Below, piece by piece: positions 3,166 to 56,617 of a stretch of DNA of 64,000 nucleotides. The notes under the pieces are model-generated. The model was not told the DNA's origin. It was given only the letters and a program-made list of their open reading frames with translations, and did not search any database. The stretch comes from Parcubacteria group bacterium. Lineage in GTDB: Bacteria > Patescibacteriota > Minisyncoccia > Phycocordibacterales > CALRBT01. Made by a program: the position numbers and the translations under genes. The stretch covers positions 101,424 through 165,423 of the forward strand of contig CALRBT010000001.1 of NCBI GenBank assembly GCA_943354475.1, read 5' to 3'. How positions within the stretch are numbered: the first letter of the stretch is position 1; each line of letters opens with the position of its first letter.

Positions 3166-6100
3166 TTATAATCCTCGTATGTTGTCAGCAATCATTGAGA
3201 GTGTTCCGTTGCGATCTGACATTTTACCTTTAACCGCAATACATTTATCGAGCTCGAGGAGGCTCTTAAATTCAAACCAGGTTTTTGGGAATACAACCAC
3301 TTCAATATTATCAGTAAAATCAGCGAGCCTCAGGAACGCCATTTTGTCTCCCTTTTTAGTAATGACTGGTTTGCAGTCTTCAATGATCCCCGCAATCATC
3401 CCGTCCTTTCCATTAGTCACCTCTTCCTTTGTTTTCTTTATACTAATCTGTGCTTTTTCTAGTTTTTCTCGTACACGATCAAGTGGATGACCTGAAACAT
3501 AGAGTCCGAGGAGTTCTTTCTCCCAACCAAGTTTTTCTGTAGAGGTTGCCGGAATTACTTCTTTTAGCGTAATTTCTGTGTCAATTGAACTACTTCCAAC
3601 AGCCCCAAAAAGTGAATCTTGATTGGCAGGCCCTTTTTCTAATTCTTTGTTGTATGCGAGCATTTCTTCAACATTGCCTAGTAATAAACCACGTTCACCA
3701 AACTCATCCATTGCACCACATTTAATGAGCGCCTCAAGAGATTTCTTGTTGAGATTTCGGTCACGAATACGATTAAGAAAATTAGTAATGCTGGTGAAGT
3801 GCCCCTTACTCTTACGTTCGTTGATAATTGCATCACCAATCCCTTCACCAAAATTTTTAATGGTATATAATCCAAATCTAATTTTTTTCTTTGCTGAATT
3901 TTCTTCATCACTAATCACGGTAAACCCACCAAAGCTTTCATTGATATCTGGTGGCAGTACTTCAATCCCCATACGTTCACACTCATGTACGATTTCAGCA
4001 ATCTTCTCAACATCTCCCGAATCAGCAGTGAGGACGGATGCCATATAAATAGCAGGGAAGTTGGCCTTCATATAGGCGGTTTGGTAGGCCACCTTACCGT
4101 AACTTGCAGCGTGTGCTTTGTTGAATCCATAGGCGGCAAAGGGCTCAATCAATTTCCACAATTGATTAGCCTTACGTTCACTGAGTCCATGAGCCTGTAG
4201 ACCTTCAAGAAGTTTTCCTTTCTGTGCCTCCATTTCTTCTGGAATTTTTTTACCCATTGCTTTACGAAGTTTGTCCGCTTCAAGCCAGGAATAGCCACCG
4301 AGTTTAATTGCGGTGAGCATGACGTCATCTTGGTAAGTAATCACTCCATAGGATTGAGAGAGAATGTCTTTAAGCCTTGGGTCGATATACTTGATTAACT
4401 CTGGATTGTGTTTACGAGCGATGTACTCAGGAATCATTTCGAGTGGTCCGGGACGATAGAGTGCTACCATCGCGTTGATGTCATGGATAGTTGTTGGTTT
4501 GAGTTCCTTGAGGTATTTGGTCATTCCTTCACCGTTTAGTTGGAAGAGCCCCATTGTCTCACCGTTAGCCAGAAGCCCGAATGTTTTCTTATCATCAACA
4601 GGAACGTTCTCAATATCAACGTCAATATTTTCAATCACTTTCACCAGCTTTACGGCTTCAGCCAGAATTGAGAGGTTTTTAATGCCGAGGAAATCGAACT
4701 TGAGAAGTCCTGCATTATTCTCGTCAATTGAGTACATATCATACTGAGTAATGATCTTGTTCTCACCTTTGGTATCGAACTGTAGTGGTGTGTAATCGGT
4801 AAGTGGCGTAGGGGAGATAACAACACCCGCTGCATGTACGGAGATGTGGCGGGCACAACCTTCAATTTTTTTGGCGAGATCGATAATTTCTTTAACATCT
4901 GCTTCACGTTCATAAATTTCTCGAAGTTCTTGCGTATCAGCGAGTGCCTGTTTGATGGTCATCGGGAAACCTTGGGATCCCATAGGGATTAGTTTGGCAA
5001 TCCGGTCACCGAGGCTGTAGGGATAGCCAAGCGCGCGAGTAACATCACGTACGGATCCACGCGCCATCATGGTACCGAATGTTCCAATCTGCGCCACTTT
5101 ATCTCTGCCATATTTTTCGCGGGCATACTCGATCATTTCATCTCGACGATTGTCGGCAAAGTCCATGTCGATGTCCGGTGCCGAAGGACGCTCTGGGTTT
5201 AGGAAACGTTCAAAGGGTAGTTTGTATTCAAGTGGGTTCACGTTGGTAATTCCAGCAAGGAAAGTAATCAGAGATCCAGCAACGGAGCCTCTAATTGAGG
5301 TGAGAATTTGGTTCTCGTGAGCAAAACGCAGAAGATCTCCTACTACCAGGAAGTAGGGGGAATAACCCTTGTCTTTAATGACTTTAAGTTCGTATTCAAT
5401 ACGTTCCGTCACTTCTTTGGTTTCCTCAATGTTGCGTCGCCTTATTCCTTCAAAGACGATATGTCGCAACTCGTCATCGTAAGAACGGCCACTTTCGACT
5501 TTAAGATCGGGGAAATTCCAAGTACCCAACTTGAGTTCCAGATTGCACATCTCTGCAATCTTTTGTGTGTTCTCGATTGCTTCAGGAATATCTTTGAAGT
5601 ATTCATCTGCTTGTTTGGTTGAGATAAAAGAAAAATCCTCAATGTTTTCACCCATGATACGGTCGCTTCCTTCCTGTTGGTTTTGAATAGCCACCATTGT
5701 CTCTCTAGCCTTTCGGTCTTCTTGTTTCAGATAGTAAACATCATGTGCCGCAACGAGGGGAATACCTGTTCGTCTTGAAAGGAGAATAATCTGATCATTC
5801 AGTTCCTTACTCCCTTCGATTTCTGGATGATGAGTGACTTCTAGAAAGGTGTTCTCTTTGCCAAATATTTTTTCAAACTCTTTGGCGACACTCTCAGCTT
5901 TATCATAGTCCTTCATCTTGAGTGAGAAGGTCGTTTCTCCACTGAAAGAGGGGATGATACAAATGAGTCCTTCATGGTGCTCTCCCATTAATTCTTTATC
6001 AATACGCGGTTTATAGTAGAAACCCTCAAGGTTTGAAAGCGTAACAAGTTTGAGCAAATTTTTGTAACCTATTTCGTCTTTAGCCAAGAGAACCAGCCGG

Positions 6101-7641: not shown

Positions 7642-7703
7642 TTCCCATCCACGGATGCGAAAGACTTGTCTTGAAAATTCTCCAAGATAGATCTTTAATA
7701 TCC

Positions 7704-8648
7704 ATGGCCAATAGGCACCTTTCCAGATCAATAGTAATGCAAACGCTCTTTGAGTGGGACTTTGCAAATGTACTCGAAAAGAAACAAGACGAGCACATCG
7801 ATGAATCCCTGCTACGAAACGCCGAAGAATTCGCTCCGGGCGTTTCTGACGTTCCGTTTATGAAAATGCTGGTCAAAGGGATTCTGGAAAAACGGCAAAC
7901 CCTCGATGATATTATTGTTAAGGCTGCACCGGACTGGCCAATTGACCGCATCTCAGTTATCGATCGAAACATCCTCCGTATCGGACTCTTTGAATTAATT
8001 TTTGCCGACAAGAAAGAAGTGCCCGCTAAAGTTGCCATCAACGAAGCAATTGAACTTGCTAAATCATTTGGTGGAGAGAATAGCGGTAAGTTCGTCAACG
8101 GTGTCCTTGGTGCGGTGTACAAAGAAATGGGGGAGCCGGGTAAAGAAGAAGTTTCAAAGAATAAAAAGAAGAAGAATGGCAAACTAGCCGAAGTTCCTTA
8201 TGAGAAAATGCCCATCCAACGACTAGGTGGTGCTGTAGTCTACGCTAGGGAGGGAGATCAGGTCTATCTCGCACTCGTTCATGACATTTTTGGTCACTGG
8301 ACCCTCTCAAAAGGGAAAATTGGTGATAACCCAGAGATCGCAAACGAAACAGCCAGCGAAGGGACGATTCGAGAAATCAAAGAGGAGATTGGACTCGATA
8401 TTGTCATCAAGGAAGAGCTCTACCTTAATGAATACATTGCCAATGACCCAGAGAAGGGTAAGATTCGCAAACAGGTTCAATACTTTCTGGCTGAATCAAA
8501 GTTCGATGAGGTGAAACTGGAGAAGAGCGGTGGACTCGATGATGCGAGATGGTTCAAGCTCGCTGATATTCTCACCCTTAATTTTTATGACGATGTGCTT
8601 CCTATTGTTACCAAAGCTATTAACATCCTTTTAGTAAAACCAAGTTAG
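7704..8648 (+). CDS. nusB: NusB-family antitermination domain fused to a C-terminal Nudix hydrolase domain
   Basis: The N-terminal half matches NusB (RSIVMQTLFEWDF...AINEAIELAKSFGGENSGKFVNGVL). After a K-rich linker, the C-terminal half has a Nudix box (E-x7-REIKEEIGL). The track start at 7671 is TTG; the ATG is at 7704. Confidence 0.75.
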   Translation: MANRHLSRSIVMQTLFEWDFANVLEKKQDEHIDESLLRNAEEFAPGVSDVPFMKMLVKGILEKRQTLDDIIVKAAPDWPIDRISVIDRNILRIGLFELIFADKKEVPAKVAINEAIELAKSFGGENSGKFVNGVLGAVYKEMGEPGKEEVSKNKKKKNGKLAEVPYEKMPIQRLGGAVVYAREGDQVYLALVHDIFGHWTLSKGKIGDNPEIANETASEGTIREIKEEIGLDIVIKEELYLNEYIANDPEKGKIRKQVQYFLAESKFDEVKLEKSGGLDDARWFKLADILTLNFYDDVLPIVTKAINILLVKPS

Positions 8649-9638: not shown

Positions 9639-10043
9639 ATGATTCACATTAAATACAAACTCGATAAGTCTATTAATCACGGTATAGGTCTTTTCGCAGG
9701 TGAGGACATTCCAAAAGGAGTAGTTGTATATACTGCGAGTCCTTTACTTGACGTGAACTTAACACGAGAAGAGTTCAATTCCTTGAATGAAAAAGAAAAA
9801 GATGAGGTTCGCTGGTGGGGATTTTTTGATGAACAAAGTCAAAAGTGGCATGTTGATTTTGATGTTTCCCGTTTTATTAATCACAGAGCTGACTCAACGG
9901 TAACCCAAGACTCTAATCATACAGAGGCATATCTTGTTACTACACGTGATATTAAAACTGGAGAAGAACTTACCCAAAATTATCTTGAATTTGAAACTGA
10001 AGCAGATTTAATGAAGCGTGGAATAATGAATGTTTTGGGTTAG
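9639..10043 (+). CDS. Small SET-domain protein (putative lysine methyltransferase)
   Basis: HGIGLFAGEDIPKG, RFINHRAD and GEELTQNY correspond to SET motifs (GxG..., RFINHSC, ELxxDY). It ends 9 bp before the smc-like gene. Confidence 0.55.
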   Translation: MIHIKYKLDKSINHGIGLFAGEDIPKGVVVYTASPLLDVNLTREEFNSLNEKEKDEVRWWGFFDEQSQKWHVDFDVSRFINHRADSTVTQDSNHTEAYLVTTRDIKTGEELTQNYLEFETEADLMKRGIMNVLG

Positions 10044-10052
10044 AATGTAGAT

Positions 10053-12344
10053 ATGTATCTCAAGAGTCTTGAAATTTCCGGATTTAAATCCTTTGCTAAA
10101 AAATCAACCCTTGAATTTAACGCGCAAGTGACGGCTATTGTTGGACCCAACGGCTCGGGGAAATCAAACGTGGCGGAAGCATTCCGCTTTGTACTCGGTG
10201 AACAGTCACTAAAATCAATGCGTGGTAAACGCGGAGAGGATTTGATTTTCAATGGTTCTAATAACCAAACGAGGCTTAATCGTGCTGGCGTTAAGGTAAC
10301 CTTTGATAATACCAAGCGCGTTTTTCCCATTGAGTATGACGAGGTAGTTATCGAGCGCGTGGTTCATCGCGATTCACTCAACGAGTATCTTATCAATGGC
10401 TCCAAGGTTAGACTCAAAGACATTATCGAACTCCTCGCGCAGGCCCATATTGGAGCGTCAGGACATCATATTATTTCCCAAGGTGAGGCCGATAGGATTC
10501 TTAACGCGTCAAATAAAGAGCGTAAGGCGATGATTGAAGATGCGCTAGGGCTCAAGATTTATCAATACAAACGCGAAGAGAGTACACGTAAGCTCGAGAA
10601 GACTGAGGAGAATATTGCACAGGTGCAGTCTCTCCGCAAAGAAATCGCGCCACACCTAAAATTTCTCAAGCGTCAGGTTGAAAAAGTGGAGAAAGCCTTT
10701 GCGATGCGAGATGAACTTGTGAAGCTATATCAAGAATACTTCAAGCGAGAAGAATTGTATTTATCGAGAGAACACGAAAAATTAAACAGAGAACAAGAGG
10801 CACCGCAAACCGAACTTCATCAAATTGAGAACAAACTCACTCACTTAAAGCAGGAAATCGAGTCAGAATCTAAAGAAAATGATCGACCGCAAGAAATCGT
10901 AATACTGGAAGAAGCACTTAATCTGATTCGGACTAAGAAAGATGAGTTGGCACGGAATCTCGGGCGACTTGAAGGAGAAATAAGTAGTGAAGAACGCCAG
11001 AGAGATCGTGAGGAGCGAATTGCCAAGATTGAGACAGAGCGACTCATCAAAGTTGGTGAAGTCCGCAAGCTTTTAGATATCCTTAAATCCTCATTTAATG
11101 AAGCAGAAATGGAGGGTGGTTTGGATCGTCTGCGAATGATTATTTCCTCTATGAGCGCGGCGGTAGGGGATTTTGTCCGCACTCACATTGATCAAGTACA
11201 AGAGGGGAGCCATTCATTTGATAGGAGTGAACTCGATCGATTGATTTCCAGAAAATCAGAACTAGAGCTCGAGCTTGAAGTAGTTCGTTTGTCTGAAAAA
11301 GAAGCACAAACCAATTATCAAAAACTCAGAGCTCAGCTTGAAGAAAAGAAAGATTCACTACGGTCAGCAGAGAGAGAAATCTTTGAGCTCGTGGGTAAAC
11401 AAAGTGAGTTGCGTAGAATCCTTGCAGATCTCCGTAACCGTCAGGAACGTCTCCATCTTGAAAAGGAATCATTCGACCGTGAACTCAGGGAGTCTGTGGC
11501 GATAGCTGGGCACGAAGCTATTAGTTTCAACGGAATGGAGTTTGCCAGCCCATCAGGAGAAGCACTCTCTGATGACGAACTCGCCATCACTCCACGTACC
11601 GAGCAAGAAGGACGTTTCAAAACAATTGAGAAGATGAAAATTAGACTTGAAGATGCAGGAGCTTCTGGTGGTGAAGAGACACTCAAAGAATATCAAGATA
11701 TCACCGAGCGAGATCAGTTTTTAGAAAAAGAAATTGCAGACTTAGAGCAATCAGCAGTCTCACTAAAATCACTCATTAAAGATTTGACCTCACAACTTGA
11801 ACGAGATTTCAAAGAGGGGATGGATAAAATCAACACACAGTTCCATGAATTCTTTGCGCTGATGTTTGGTGGCGGACGCGCGGGACTAACACTTCTCCAA
11901 GAGAAGAAGCGAAAACGCGGCAGCACAGAGGATTTGGTACTAACCCAAGATCCAGAAGCCGACTTTGAAGAACCACAAGAGGAACTCGAATCAGGAATTG
12001 AGATTGATATTGCACTTCCACACAAGAAAACCAAGGGACTTGAGATGCTCTCTGGAGGGGAGCGAGCACTTACCTCAATTGCACTTCTCTTTGCAATTTC
12101 TCAAGTTAATCCACCACCGTTTATCATCCTCGATGAGACCGACGCAGCACTCGATGAAGCTAACTCGAAGAAATACGGTACTATGATTGAGAATCTCTCC
12201 AGGTACTCTCAGCTCATTGTAATCACTCACAATCGTGAGACAATGAGCACTGCAAGTATTATCTACGGCGTGACGATGGGAGGGGATGGAATTTCCAAAC
12301 TTCTCTCGATTCAATTTGAGGAAGCGGTAACCGTAGCAAAGTAG
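10053..12344 (+). CDS. smc: SMC-family chromosome-segregation ATPase, short form of 763 aa
   Basis: N-terminal Walker A (GPNGSGKSN), long coiled coil, C-terminal ABC signature LSGGERALTSIAL and Walker B ILDETDAALD. Confidence 0.8.
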   Translation: MYLKSLEISGFKSFAKKSTLEFNAQVTAIVGPNGSGKSNVAEAFRFVLGEQSLKSMRGKRGEDLIFNGSNNQTRLNRAGVKVTFDNTKRVFPIEYDEVVIERVVHRDSLNEYLINGSKVRLKDIIELLAQAHIGASGHHIISQGEADRILNASNKERKAMIEDALGLKIYQYKREESTRKLEKTEENIAQVQSLRKEIAPHLKFLKRQVEKVEKAFAMRDELVKLYQEYFKREELYLSREHEKLNREQEAPQTELHQIENKLTHLKQEIESESKENDRPQEIVILEEALNLIRTKKDELARNLGRLEGEISSEERQRDREERIAKIETERLIKVGEVRKLLDILKSSFNEAEMEGGLDRLRMIISSMSAAVGDFVRTHIDQVQEGSHSFDRSELDRLISRKSELELELEVVRLSEKEAQTNYQKLRAQLEEKKDSLRSAEREIFELVGKQSELRRILADLRNRQERLHLEKESFDRELRESVAIAGHEAISFNGMEFASPSGEALSDDELAITPRTEQEGRFKTIEKMKIRLEDAGASGGEETLKEYQDITERDQFLEKEIADLEQSAVSLKSLIKDLTSQLERDFKEGMDKINTQFHEFFALMFGGGRAGLTLLQEKKRKRGSTEDLVLTQDPEADFEEPQEELESGIEIDIALPHKKTKGLEMLSGGERALTSIALLFAISQVNPPPFIILDETDAALDEANSKKYGTMIENLSRYSQLIVITHNRETMSTASIIYGVTMGGDGISKLLSIQFEEAVTVAK

Positions 12345-31381: not shown

Positions 31382-32689
31382 ATGCCAAAAAAGAAGAAAG
31401 TTTCAAAAAAGAAAGTGGTCAAAGCAAAGCCTGCCAAAAAGGTAGTAAAGACCAAGGTTAAGGCTGTAAAAGCTAAGGTTAAGAATTTTGCCAAACTAAA
31501 ACTTGAACGTCAGAAGAAAGTAAAAGCAAAGACTGTAAAAAAGGTTGGGGGCAAGGCGCTTGCCAAGAAGGCGGTAAAGAAGAAGCCTGTCAAAGTAGAG
31601 AAAACAAAAAGTTCAAAGAAAGAAAACGAATTTAATAACAAAGTAGAAAGGCTTGTCCTCAAAGGTAAGGAGCGAGGCTTTGTCACCTACGATCAGATTC
31701 TCAAGGAATTCCCAGCTATTGAGGATGACATTCTTGGACTTGAATTTTTGTACGAAAAGTTTTCAGCATCTGGAATTGACGTCCTCGAAGGTGGAGGAAT
31801 GCTCGGTGCCAATGATGATGAATTGCCTAAGAAATACGGTTACGGAAAGAGTGATTCTTCATACGACTCGATTCAAATGTACCTAAAAGAAATTGGTCAG
31901 TACCCACTGCTTAAGGCGTTTGAAGAGAAAGACTTTGCTAAACGAATTATGGAAGGGGACATTGAAGCCAAGAATCTTCTGGCACGCGCTAACCTGCGTT
32001 TGGTGGTATCAATTGCCAAGAAATACGTTGGTCGCTCACCTGACCTCACGCTTCTTGATCTCATTCAAGAAGGAAACCTCGGACTCTTCAAGGCGGTAGA
32101 TAAGTTTGATTGGACTAAAGGATATAAATTCTCAACGTATGCCACGTGGTGGATTCGCCAAGCCATTACCCGTGCGCTTGCCGATCAGAGCCGAACCATC
32201 CGCATTCCGGTGCACATGGTGGAGACAATTGCCAAGTACAAGCAAGTAGTAAGGCGATTGTCACAGGATCTAGGACGTGACCCATTGCCCGATGAGATTG
32301 CAACCGAAATGGGTGTTGAAGTAGACAAGATTTACACTATTGAACAGATCAATCAAGACACAGTCTCGCTTGAATCTCCGGTAGGGGATGATGGAGATGA
32401 CAGGTCAACACTCGGTGACTTTATTGCAGATGATAAGATTTTAGCTCCCGATCACGAGTCTTCTCGCAGGATCCTTTCAGATCAGGTTAAAGATATTTTA
32501 AATGACCTCTCGCTTAAAGAGCGCAAGATTCTGGAGATGCGACATGGATTAGTTGATGGTATTACGCACACACTTGAAGAGGTTGGAAAAGAATTTGGTG
32601 TCACTCGTGAACGCATCAGACAGATTGAAGCAAAAGCTCACCAAAAGATACGAGAACATGAGAAGGTGAATCGACTCCGAAACTACTAA
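31382..32689 (+). CDS. rpoD: RNA polymerase sigma-70 factor with a histone-H1-like lysine-rich N-terminal extension of about 80 aa
   Basis: Region 1.2 ([17 protein letters not shown]), region 2 ([14 protein letters not shown]), region 3 and region 4 are all present. The N-terminus is [31 protein letters not shown]... Confidence 0.9.
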
Positions 32690-32728
32690 GGGTTTCCAAA
32701 CTTGGAAAATCCGGATGTTAAAGCATCA

Positions 32729-32756
32729 GACCCCCACAAGCAAGCTTGCGGGGGTC
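32729..32756 (+). terminator. Hairpin GACCCCCACAAGC/GCTTGCGGGGGTC after rpoD
   Basis: Read directly. One mismatch in a 13-bp stem. Confidence 0.55.
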
Positions 32757-32825
32757 TCGGCTTAATAGCGAACACCGCAGGGGAGGGGTTTATTCCTCCA
32801 CACCGCGGTGTGTTTCGTCGCGCGG

Positions 32826-33146
32826 TTACTTTCCGTGCGACAAGTGGTAGAGCATCTTGATGATGCCACAAGTGGTCCGTAGAAGGAAGAAGGCGATTAG
32901 GAAATGGGACACAAGTCCCATGTTTCCAAGCGTCACCTCCACCTGAGCCCCCGTATCTGGGGGCAACAAGTCGCATCCCCACTCGATCGATCTTGTCATC
33001 CCCCGTTTGATTTCTTTCAGTGTTTGGGGGTGGTAGGCGAGGAGGTAGGCGAACCCCCCCAGAACGACTGCGGTTGTCCACGCTTGGAAAAAGCGCGCCC
33101 TGATCCACATCCATCCAAAATAACCAAACTTTCTCGCGAATTCCAT
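32826..33146 (-). CDS. Small two-TM membrane protein in a GC-rich islet
   Basis: The start was chosen at the ATG preceded by AGGAGAA (MEFARKFGYFGWMWI...). Local GC is visibly higher than in the flanks. Confidence 0.4.
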   Translation of the reverse strand: MEFARKFGYFGWMWIRARFFQAWTTAVVLGGFAYLLAYHPQTLKEIKRGMTRSIEWGCDLLPPDTGAQVEVTLGNMGLVSHFLIAFFLLRTTCGIIKMLYHLSHGK

Positions 33147-33317
33147 CGGAGTTCTCCTGAATTGGTTTGACCACGTCCCATGACGCAATCTATTACTGAA
33201 TTAAGTATACCATACTTAATAAAATTTGTCAAGTATCACAAACACCTTCAAATTTTGTTCACAATGGTCAAAAATCTAGCCTAGAGATTAGGAAATAAAG
33301 GAGAGTGAGTATATAAT

Positions 33318-33467
33318 ATGCTCATGGCAAAACGACTCGCAGTAAATACAAAGAATAAAACATCTCGTTCTAAGAAAACAAAGAAGCGACTTGCGACTAA
33401 GAAAGCAATGCTTTTGGCGAAACCAAAGAACAAGAGCACCAACCCTAACCGAAGACGAAGTGCATAA
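33318..33467 (+). CDS. Unannotated 49-aa very basic peptide (MLMAKRLAVNTKNKTSRSKKTKKRLATKKAMLLAKPKNKSTNPNRRRSA)
   Basis: AAAGGAGAG lies upstream, though the spacing is long at about 12 nt. Two hairpins follow at 33583-33652. Confidence 0.3.
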   Translation: MLMAKRLAVNTKNKTSRSKKTKKRLATKKAMLLAKPKNKSTNPNRRRSA

Positions 33468-51389: not shown

Positions 51390-52040
51390 TCAGAGCTTCT
51401 TTGACTTTGACCACTCGACATTTCCATCGATCACTTTGCGTTCAAATTCGGTGGCGTTGCGCAGACCCTTGGCCATTTTTTCAGTAATAAGTGGAATGTG
51501 TTTAATATCGTCAATGTCTTCGGCGATGTAATGGAGATCTTCTTCACTCGTCACCCACTCCAAATCCTTATCGAGTTTTTTGTACCGCAGAAGATTAAAA
51601 GGGACTGAGAAGCTCCGTAGGCTCTTGATACCTTTTTTGTGCGCATTGGTGTATTCGTGGAAGTATGAGAGAGCCAACTCTCTTTGTGTTCGATACACTG
51701 GATCGCGGTAACGCAGTACCGCATGGTTGGTCTTACTGATAGCGCCCCAATATCCATCTTTCTTGAAGAGGGCGACAACATGATCCTCGTCGTTATGAGT
51801 TTTGAAATCCATTAGTAACGGCACTCCTCCGTTGACCCAAAGGGCGCAGGCGGCAATGAGTGCGGCTTCCATACAGTGGACCTTTTTTTCTCGAAGCGCT
51901 CTGGATACTGACATATACGTCTCACCAGTTTCTTCAAAATTAATAGGTAATTTATCTAAGTAATCTTGGATTTTAACAGGGGTATTTAGTTTGCGCAGAA
52001 GGGAATAGTCGCCTTTAGATAATCCAAATCTAGTGTGCAT
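51390..52040 (-). CDS. Hypothetical protein, possibly a papain-like or transglutaminase-like Cys-His fold
   Basis: A HCMEAALIAACAL ... DHVVALFKKDGYWG arrangement. Weak evidence. Confidence 0.35.
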   Translation of the reverse strand: MHTRFGLSKGDYSLLRKLNTPVKIQDYLDKLPINFEETGETYMSVSRALREKKVHCMEAALIAACALWVNGGVPLLMDFKTHNDEDHVVALFKKDGYWGAISKTNHAVLRYRDPVYRTQRELALSYFHEYTNAHKKGIKSLRSFSVPFNLLRYKKLDKDLEWVTSEEDLHYIAEDIDDIKHIPLITEKMAKGLRNATEFERKVIDGNVEWSKSKKL

Positions 52041-55992: not shown

Positions 55993-56074
55993 TTTGCAAA
56001 GAAATTAATTATCCCTGTTTACGTACTGTAATAATTTTTGGTATACTTTTTCGTGCTAGAAATAAATTAATACT

Positions 56075-56590
56075 ATGAAAACAGAAACAATCAAGAAAGG
56101 AGGAAAGTATGAGCCTGGAAATTTTACATTGAAGGCAAAACGATCGAGTGCAGGATTAGGGCTCTATACGATGGACCCAATTAAAAAAGGGGATTGTGTC
56201 ATCGAGTACGTAGGACCAGTAGTACCTAAAGAAGAATGGGACACTATTAATAGCCTTTACCTTTTTGAGGTAACCAAGAAGAAAACTATCAACGGTGCTG
56301 TTCGGAGTAACACCGCTCGTTATATCAATCACTCTTGCAAGCCAAATTGTGAAATTGATATTCGTAAGGAGAGGGTATTTATTATGGCGAAACGTAATAT
56401 CAAAGCTGGAGAAGAACTAAGTTATGATTATGACCGAGAATATTTTGATGAATATATCAAACCAAAGGGTTGTAAGTGTGGGGCAGAAAAGCATCTCTAT
56501 AACACTCCTAAAAAAGTCACTCCAGCAAAAAAGAAAGTAACAAAAACAACAAAGGGGAAAAAGCCCAAAACCAAAAAGGGTGCAAGATAA
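56075..56590 (+). CDS. SET-domain lysine methyltransferase with a histone-H1-like KKxK-rich C-terminal tail
   Basis: GLGLYTMDPIKKGDCVIEYVG, NHSCKPNC and EELSYDY SET motifs, a post-SET CKCGAEKH, then TPKKVTPAKKKVTKTTKGKKPKTKKGAR. Confidence 0.75.
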   Translation: MKTETIKKGGKYEPGNFTLKAKRSSAGLGLYTMDPIKKGDCVIEYVGPVVPKEEWDTINSLYLFEVTKKKTINGAVRSNTARYINHSCKPNCEIDIRKERVFIMAKRNIKAGEELSYDYDREYFDEYIKPKGCKCGAEKHLYNTPKKVTPAKKKVTKTTKGKKPKTKKGAR

Positions 56591-56596
56591 AAAATA

Positions 56597-56617
56597 CCCC
56601 CGTCACGTGGACGGGGG
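56597..56617 (+). terminator. Hairpin CCCCCGTC/GACGGGGG after the SET gene
   Basis: Read directly from the sequence. Confidence 0.5.

Follow-up and report, generated by a model that had tools for sequence, protein, structure and literature searches.

A predicted SET-domain lysine methyltransferase with a fused lysine-rich tail in a Parcubacteria group bacterium, and the recurrence of basic flanks in its family

A 64,000-nucleotide stretch of contig CALRBT010000001.1 from a Parcubacteria group bacterium (hereafter the window) encodes, at 56075..56590 (+), a 171-amino-acid (aa) protein in which a compact SET domain is followed by a lysine-rich C-terminal tail. From the sequence and a structural model, we propose with a probability of about one half that the protein is an active lysine methyltransferase and uses its disordered polycationic tail to bind DNA or, more broadly, nucleic acids. 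By every feature of sequence and model examined, the query is assigned to the SET-domain lysine methyltransferase family, and the label 'SET domain-containing protein(-lysine N-methyltransferase)' is already in database use for its relatives. As a recurrent architecture of the family, the fused polycationic flank appears to be undescribed, and so does the prevalence of the family in genomes of the candidate phyla radiation (CPR).

The open reading frame (ORF) has an ATG start, includes its stop codon, and encodes a protein recorded identically in NCBI, ENA, and Logan assemblies. Its match to the Pfam SET profile (PF00856; E 2.4e-22, 79.8 bits against a cut-off of 22.4) extends over residues 27-119 and covers profile positions 1-104 of 105. 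The catalytic core (residues 1-132; 56075..56470, +) opens with a basic N-flank, KKGGKYEPGNFTLKAKRS, and continues with GLGLY (residues 27-31), EYVG, YLFEV, NHSC (within NHSCKPNC, 85-92), and ELSYDY (114-119). The original prediction, made from the DNA letters alone, had claimed a complete SET core on the strength of GLGLY, NHSCKPNC, ELSYDY, and a post-SET CKCG..H, and each of these motifs was located in the protein, the last as CKCGAEKH at residues 133-140. In an alignment of 65 homologs, 22 columns were invariant and covered every motif for catalysis and for binding of S-adenosylmethionine (SAM), including G27, G29, E44, Y45, G47, Y62, L63, F64, N85, H86, E113, E114, Y117, Y119, C133, and C135, while C88 was kept in at least 90% of the members. 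Loss of SAM-binding residues had been named as grounds for abandoning the prediction; because the motif columns are invariant in the 65 homologs, the SAM-binding and catalytic residues are retained across the family.

The best sequence relatives of solved structure were KMT2D, KMT2C, and KMT2A, followed by ASH1L, SET1, and NSD1-3 (E from 1.6e-18 downward, to about 1e-13). In the HMMER alignment to KMT2D, KMT2C, and KMT2A, the GxG (GLGLY), EYxG, YxF, NHSC, ELxYDY, and CxCGA motifs were all in register. An AlphaFold2 model of the 171-aa protein, built from the 65-sequence alignment, had a mean predicted local distance difference test score (pLDDT) of 85, with residues 11-120 mostly at 89-98. A Foldseek search of this model against the PDB placed the SET domains of MLL1, MLL3, G9a, and GLP at the top (E 3.5e-10 to 1e-8, probability 1.0, template modeling score 0.55-0.62).

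The post-SET motif C133-x-C135-x4-H140 (CKCGAEKH; 56471..56494, +) would form, judged by its conservation, a putative zinc site together with C88. Most family members carry CxCxxC at this place, and the query subclade carries CxCGAxKH (CxCGAxKHLY), in register with the CxCx4C of MLL-type post-SET domains. By sequence, C88, C133, and C135 are present as zinc ligands and the fourth ligand position is H140, which we take to lie opposite the third cysteine of the MLL-type CxCx4C at the C-terminus of MLL1. Y117 in ELSYDY presumably occupies the Phe/Tyr-switch position of SET enzymes, and a tyrosine there predicts mono- or di-methylation rather than trimethylation. These results suggest that the protein is a complete, apparently active SET and post-SET protein-lysine methyltransferase.

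The trithorax/MLL-type SET proteins (KMT2A-D and SET1, with ASH1L, NSD, and G9a) are thus the nearest known system in both sequence (E 1.6e-18, about 31-34% identity) and structure. The query shares with them the GxG, EYxG, NHSC, and ELxYDY motifs, the post-SET CxCGAxK[C/H], and a switch tyrosine as in MLL1. Unlike them, it is a stand-alone protein of 171 aa that lacks WIN, PHD, AWS, and pre-SET modules and partner-binding regions, its third post-SET ligand is histidine instead of cysteine, and its polycationic tail follows the post-SET motif, where MLL-type proteins end. The setting also differs, since the organism of the query has no histones. Homology to rubisco LSMT-like enzymes with targets outside the nucleoid, which the original prediction had set up as a competing assignment, was rejected: LSMT-like enzymes have a SET domain split by a large insert and a C-terminal Rubis-subs-bind domain, whereas the Pfam scan gave a single compact SET match and no Rubis-subs-bind match, the relatives are of MLL/ASH1L/NSD type, and nothing of that architecture occurs in the protein.

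The lysine-rich C-terminal end that had drawn attention to the protein, TPKKVTPAKKKVTKTTKGKKPKTKKGAR, is present. The tail proper (YNTPKKVTPAKKKVTKTTKGKKPKTKKGAR; residues 142-171; 56498..56587, +) comprises 30 residues with 12 lysines, one arginine, and no aspartate or glutamate, giving a net charge of +13. Its composition is K12 T6 P3 V2 A2 G2 R1 (40% lysine), with S/TPKK-type motifs at residues 144 (TPKK) and 149 (TPAKK), and both this composition and the AlphaFold2 model, which gives it a pLDDT of 60-71 and no secondary structure, are consistent with a disordered polycation. Of the 50 proteins in the window that are 100 aa or longer, the SET protein has the most basic C-terminus (net +12 in its last 25 aa), the next reaching +7, and a C-terminus of at least +10 was found in only 0.5% of 758 proteins neighbouring the homologous loci. 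The earlier description of this tail as H1- or Hc1-like holds for composition, as an acid-free, K/A/P/T-rich, disordered segment with S/TPKK motifs, and fails for homology: a Pfam scan of the SET protein at E <= 1 gave no match to the Linker_histone or Hc1 models and returned only SET and a weak PRDM2_PR. The five closest relatives (P0002, P0004, P0005, P0006, and L033) retain the lysine-rich composition of the tail and not its sequence, and their tails differ in length. Throughout the query subclade, which comprises these five (L033 being from Doudnabacteria) together with L017, L034, and L049, the tails are lysine-rich, 2-31 residues long, and variable in sequence.

Basic flanks proved to be a recurrent trait of the family. 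In species-representative genomes, the last 25 aa carried a net charge of at least +8 in 28% of 78 SET family members, compared with 2.6% of 758 neighbouring proteins, so that a basic C-terminus is about 11-fold commoner in the family (odds ratio 14.5, Fisher p 1e-13). A flank of at least +6 was found in 57 of 180 members, at the N-terminus in 31, at the C-terminus in 28, and at both ends in two; 23 of the 180 were essentially flank-free (net <= +1). With a threshold of at least +8, flanks were present in 39 of 97 diverse representatives of 50%-identity clusters. The tails were found in CPR bacteria, Hyphomonadaceae/Terricaulis, Bradyrhizobium, Rhodopseudomonas, and Binatia, and the flank pattern holds across unrelated phyla whose fractional G+C content (GC) is 0.30-0.71. 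In Hyphomonadaceae, Terricaulis, and Binatia the tails are rich in K, A, and R (e.g., ...AAAKKATAKSAARKRAGSKVKKKTTAKK...), and in Bradyrhizobium and Rhodopseudomonas they reach 80-100 residues, those of Rhodopseudomonas being AKP-rich and strikingly H1-like in appearance (...AKPKGAAPKAGKAKASKAGAAKATTKAK...). Many CPR members carry the basic stretch at the N-terminus instead (e.g., MTKKTKTKKTVKKGKKVS...). A fused basic flank is no peculiarity of this organism, as about 30-40% of a family spanning many phyla bears one.

On a neighbour-joining tree of 286 cores, the minimum number of state changes was 30 for a C-terminal tail of at least +6 and 32 for an N-terminal leader of at least +6, counts that are rough given a short domain, a noisy tree, and phylogenetically non-independent sequences. 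Read from these sequences, the basic flank has been gained or lost many times in the SET family. Some 30 changes could also be expected if the flank were functionless low-complexity drift, a tolerated lysine run produced by slippage in A-rich DNA; the tail is encoded by AAA/AAG runs, and its sequence is unconserved even among relatives with 80-86% identical cores. This explanation is nevertheless highly unlikely in view of the enrichment of basic C-termini over the neighbouring proteins, the lack of any acidic residue in the window tail, the placement of the flank at the N- or C-terminus and almost never at both (two of the 57), and the occurrence of flanks of K/R/A composition in high-GC Alphaproteobacteria as well as in AT-rich CPR genomes. 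A recurrent, acid-free flank at one end or the other is what would be expected of a selected generic polycation and not of a specific folded or docking element, and the two doubly flanked members among 57 suggest that one basic flank is enough.

The family itself is large. A word-indexed search with the SET protein gave 2,745 relatives; the best 120 of these are 127-264 aa long, share 54-86% identity with the query (the identical record excepted), and, where named, belong to Paceibacterota, Parcubacteria, or Patescibacteria. When 1.84 billion cluster representatives were searched without a profile, 9,523 SET proteins passed E <= 1e-3 and 33 clusters passed E <= 1e-30. Across phyla, with one genome per GTDB species, family members outside the CPR were found at 48-65% identity in Methyloceanibacter (including the isolate M. 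marginalis), Bradyrhizobium (including a complete genome), Rhodopseudomonas, Hyphomonadaceae/Terricaulis, and Xanthobacteraceae, as well as in Blastocatellia and Pyrinomonadaceae (Acidobacteria), Binatia, and a Spirochaetota metagenome-assembled genome. For the free-living Methyloceanibacter, Hyphomonadaceae, and Blastocatellia, identity across phyla was 50-68%. The family is a large bacterial group of 130-230 aa proteins, mostly from Patescibacteria/Paceibacteria, with additional members in free-living Alphaproteobacteria, Acidobacteria, and Binatia. One member (P0003, 264 aa) is a tandem double-SET fusion, and a Parcubacteria locus (L011) holds two adjacent SET genes from different subfamilies at 4533..4958 and 5001..5423; these two cases give a hint of dimeric or paired function.

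This distribution bears on whether the protein might be a secreted nucleomodulin like NUE, LegAS4/RomA, BtSET, and BaSET, exported to a eukaryotic host, where its tail would direct it to the nucleus or nucleolus or mimic a histone. Of the bacterial SET proteins characterised by experiment, the majority are effectors that target host histones (PMC3980110, PMC10117894), and the tail does look like a classical basic nuclear localisation signal. The sole NCBIfam match was likewise to the LegAS4/AnkI equivalog (NF043024), but it reached 32.7 bits against a cut-off of 550 through the SET portion alone, and this assignment was rejected. The Pfam scan of the SET protein gave no further domains, such as ankyrin or other host-targeting modules, and no hydrophobic N-terminal signal was found in its 171 residues. 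Moreover, the family is abundant in free-living bacteria not associated with hosts, its core is conserved far beyond what is usual for effectors, and CPR bacteria are believed to have mainly prokaryotic hosts (PMC9108980). An exported effector is accordingly extremely improbable.

In the mechanism that we favour, the compact trithorax/MLL-like SET domain would carry out SAM-dependent protein-lysine methylation, with mono- or di-methyl lysine as the product state predicted from Y117. The 30-residue acid-free tail would bind a polyanion non-specifically, with the DNA of the nucleoid as the first choice and RNA as the second possibility. Binding of nucleic acid by the tail would concentrate the enzyme beside lysine-rich endogenous substrates that are themselves bound to nucleic acid; candidates may include the lysine-rich leader of RpoD, nucleoid proteins of the HU or SWIB type, and ribosomal proteins. 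For the tail, a parallel is offered by mycobacterial Ku, in which C-terminal lysine-rich PAKKA repeats modulate DNA binding (PMC3553676). For the enzyme, the Chlamydophila pneumoniae protein cpnSET and the Methanosarcina mazei protein Go1-SET are cases of a prokaryotic SET protein acting on native DNA-binding proteins, methylating Hc1 and MC1-alpha, respectively (PMC3980110). The cpnSET and Go1-SET cases, together with the presence of the family in free-living bacteria, support an endogenous role.

Several points weigh against a nucleoid tether as the general function. The composition of the tail alone cannot separate DNA from RNA as the partner. The SET core also carries a positive charge of its own (net +7, isoelectric point 9.1), which is at odds with the simple idea of a basic anchor on an acidic enzyme. 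Across the SET family the flank is evolutionarily labile, and the 23 flank-free members indicate that a tether is not essential to family function. Neither the homolog contexts nor ORF clustering of 86 SET loci revealed a universally conserved neighbour or operon. Finally, the tail lies right after the post-SET motif and could instead be a substrate or pseudosubstrate.

The last point can be developed into an alternative in which the tail folds back into the lysine channel and is automethylated, either regulating activity or producing a methyl-lysine signal. In SET enzymes the post-SET motif contributes to the substrate groove, and the tail, 40% of which is lysine, begins two residues past it. 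The pLDDT of the tail lies above the very low values typical of a fully free tail, and chlamydial NUE automethylates (PMC3980110). A generic polycation is the better fit to flanks that are N-terminal as often as C-terminal (31 and 28 members) and whose length varies between a few and about 100 residues, so we regard the tail as an unlikely auto-substrate, although such a role would be compatible with tethering and the two are not exclusive.

Among the known prokaryotic systems, cpnSET is reported to bind and methylate the endogenous H1-like nucleoid protein Hc1 (Murata 2007, via PMC3980110). The lysine-rich H1-like module is a separate protein (Hc1/Hc2) in Chlamydia, whereas here the lysine-rich module is fused to the enzyme, and the chlamydial SET proteins are also type III secreted (NUE). 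Chlamydial SET proteins are not known to carry the post-SET cysteines. No Hc1 homolog, and no homology to Hc1, turned up in the window in a Pfam scan, and the chlamydial SET-Hc1 parallel is to be read as a functional analogy, not as proof of relationship. For an endogenous 'chromatin' role, Go1-SET offers the strongest precedent, as it methylates MC1-alpha in vitro (Manzur & Zhou 2005, via PMC3980110). Like the query, it is a small stand-alone prokaryotic SET protein, and it acts on a native DNA-associated protein; it differs in being archaeal, in having no reported basic tail, and in its MC1 substrate family, which is absent from bacteria. The Chlorella virus PBCV-1 protein vSET resembles the query as a minimal SET-only enzyme of about 120 aa, near the size of the query core. 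It is a viral dimer that acts on host H3K27 and has neither a post-SET zinc motif nor a basic tail. The tail itself compares best with the PAKKA repeats of mycobacterial Ku and the C-terminal intrinsically disordered region of MDP1/HupB, which are likewise acid-free, K/A/P/T-rich, disordered terminal extensions. In these proteins the tail extends a domain with DNA-binding activity of its own, while in the query it extends a protein-modifying enzyme; the MDP1 tail organises the genome (PMC5974015).

In the window, the SET gene follows a P-type ATPase gene after a gap of 82 nucleotides, which houses a promoter-like site (TTTACG-18-TATACT with TG; 56018..56047, +) that ends 27 nucleotides before the start codon. 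This site comes from a consensus scan alone and is weak, the scan having given four sites against 3.2 expected in shuffled sequences. A GC-rich hairpin of 8 bp (seven G-C pairs; 56597..56617, strand unassigned), located by a terminator scan 7 nucleotides past the stop codon, is the probable transcript end of the SET gene; the scan called it a terminator on the - strand, which holds the T-run, and on the + strand an A-run precedes it. The P-type ATPase and Sua5 genes that neighbour SET here recur beside it only in the closest relative, and no nucleoid-protein gene in the window was linked to the SET gene by context.

Four kilobases upstream of the SET gene lies an ORF for a 216-aa homolog of CPR-C4, a vasohibin-like cysteine protease (51390..52040, -; E 7.8e-57 to PDB 7OB6 and 7PJO), with the catalytic H54, C55, and H86 conserved. 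The gene most often found right next to SET is that for CPR-C4 (7 of 63 loci); it lies no more than 6 kb away in 12 loci, in divergent as well as co-directional orientation, and stands directly beside SET in at least eight CPR loci (L023, L026, L032, L035, L036, L045, L048, and L102). In the reverse test, SET was found within 4 kb in only 1 of 80 metagenomic loci centred on CPR-C4; a defined SET/CPR-C4 system was rejected on this result, and because of it the linkage is lineage-limited. The CPR-C4 paper gives no informative gene context and infers a negatively charged substrate (PMC9108980), and the SET-adjacent context is absent from its report.

Six SET-centred CPR loci (L009, L010, L013, L023, L026, and L080) have, no more than 6 kb from SET, a gene for a highly conserved SWIB-domain protein of 82-85 aa, and another is present in the L102 locus. 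In L013, the SWIB gene (3226..3480) lies directly upstream of SET (3505..3936) in an apparent operon. SWIB is, as SET is, a eukaryotic chromatin-associated domain. The window contains no SWIB gene. The SET/SWIB linkage is lineage-limited and a weak lead, and SWIB could be a partner or a substrate of SET.

In nine loci, that of the window included, def, fmt, and the gene for the ribosome hibernation factor HPF form a block no more than 6 kb from SET. Besides the SET protein, the window proteins with strongly basic termini are RpoD, L32, and HPF, all of which bind nucleic acid. The lysine-rich termini of L32 and HPF and the proximity of the def-fmt-HPF block would fit a tail that binds ribosomal RNA, the enzyme then methylating ribosomal proteins or translation factors and not nucleoid proteins. 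The extreme conservation of the core across phyla would likewise suit a universally conserved substrate, and the yeast SET enzymes Rkm1-4 methylate ribosomal proteins. Inherited Paceibacteria synteny can explain the proximity of the block, however; no ribosomal gene adjoins SET in any locus examined, and bacterial H1-like AKKA/PAKK tails are best documented on DNA-binding proteins (Ku). A ribosomal tether is possible and, on balance, rather unlikely.

The original prediction had listed further lysine-rich proteins in the window, and these fared unevenly. Its claim for RpoD stands: residues 1-85 (31382..31636, +) form a polybasic leader with 36 lysines and a net charge of +33. The best 120 RpoD homologs are all of Paceibacteria type and all carry a lysine-rich leader (median 62 aa, 23 lysines, net +22), so the polybasic leader is a clade-wide trait. 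In most bacteria, the acidic region 1.1 occupies this position. The Paceibacteria-type RpoD relatives and the CPR-C4 homolog also bear out that the DNA is from a small-genome bacterium, of the Patescibacteria/CPR. The tail ascribed to rpmF is real in reduced form, L32 being moderately lysine-rich (nine lysines among its final 25 residues, net +6), and that ascribed to rpsP was overstated, as the S16 extension is a K/E/P/V/A mix with an acidic end. Of the two small basic proteins reported, one candidate was recovered, a K/R-rich ORF of 49 aa (33318..33467, +; MLMAKRLAVNTKNKTSRSKKTKKRLATKK...) in a low-GC spacer, which has no Pfam match; the second was not found in the window.

The window also contains a second SET-domain gene (9639..10043, +; 134 aa; Pfam SET 1.6e-13), whose product shares 24% identity with the first, has a net charge of -9, and carries neither post-SET cysteines nor a basic tail. 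The family of this protein gave 656 matches, is highly conserved in CPR bacteria, and is tail-less, nearly all of its best 120 members being 129-135 aa long; the basic flank thus belongs to the first family and not to SET proteins or to this proteome generally. The second SET gene follows that for RNase III and lies 9 nucleotides upstream of an SMC-like gene (10053..12344). This pairing was rejected as a conserved nucleoid link, since the adjacency was absent in all four relatives checked.

Two further features of the window were recorded. Just after rpoD, about 500 nucleotides of non-coding DNA (32700..33200) have a GC content of 53-56%, compared with 42% for the window, and on either strand fold markedly better than shuffled sequences do (z -5.8 and -5.95). 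The segment gave no Rfam match at the gathering score or at E < 0.1, and its composition and folding make it a candidate unannotated structured RNA. The ORF at 7671..8648 (+) encodes NusB (Pfam 3e-35) with a NUDIX hydrolase domain (1e-8) at its C-terminus and a lysine-rich linker, KNKKKKNGK, between the two; this fusion is an unusual NusB architecture.

A bolder form of the nucleoid-tether reading may be considered, in which the SET protein of Paceibacteria and some free-living Alphaproteobacteria would be a 'chromatin-like' writer, a nucleoid-tethered enzyme that methylates lysine-rich disordered regions of DNA-bound proteins. Its candidate targets would be the clade-wide polybasic RpoD leader, which replaces the acidic region 1.1, and SWIB-type nucleoid proteins, and the enzyme might act with the sometimes-adjacent, eukaryote-like tail-modifying proteins CPR-C4 and SWIB. 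We offer this as speculation and consider it decidedly unlikely; if true, it would mean that transcription or nucleoid compaction is regulated by lysine methylation in histone-free bacteria.

Bacterial SET genes have been known for about two decades, and almost all functional work on them concerns effectors that methylate host histones. In the open-access literature, we found no paper that joins SET domains to Patescibacteria or describes a fused-tail architecture and nothing relevant on SET proteins of Bradyrhizobium or Rhodopseudomonas; a co-mention of 'SET domain' and 'candidate phyla radiation' was apparently unrelated to this family. A basic flank that recurs at either end of a very conserved family would provide a handle on the endogenous role of bacterial SET enzymes. 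Taken together, the recurrence of the flank and the retention of the family in minimal CPR genomes point to an endogenous role at a nucleic-acid surface, and as tail-bearing orthologs occur in the cultured, genetically tractable Bradyrhizobium, Rhodopseudomonas, and Methyloceanibacter, the question is directly testable.

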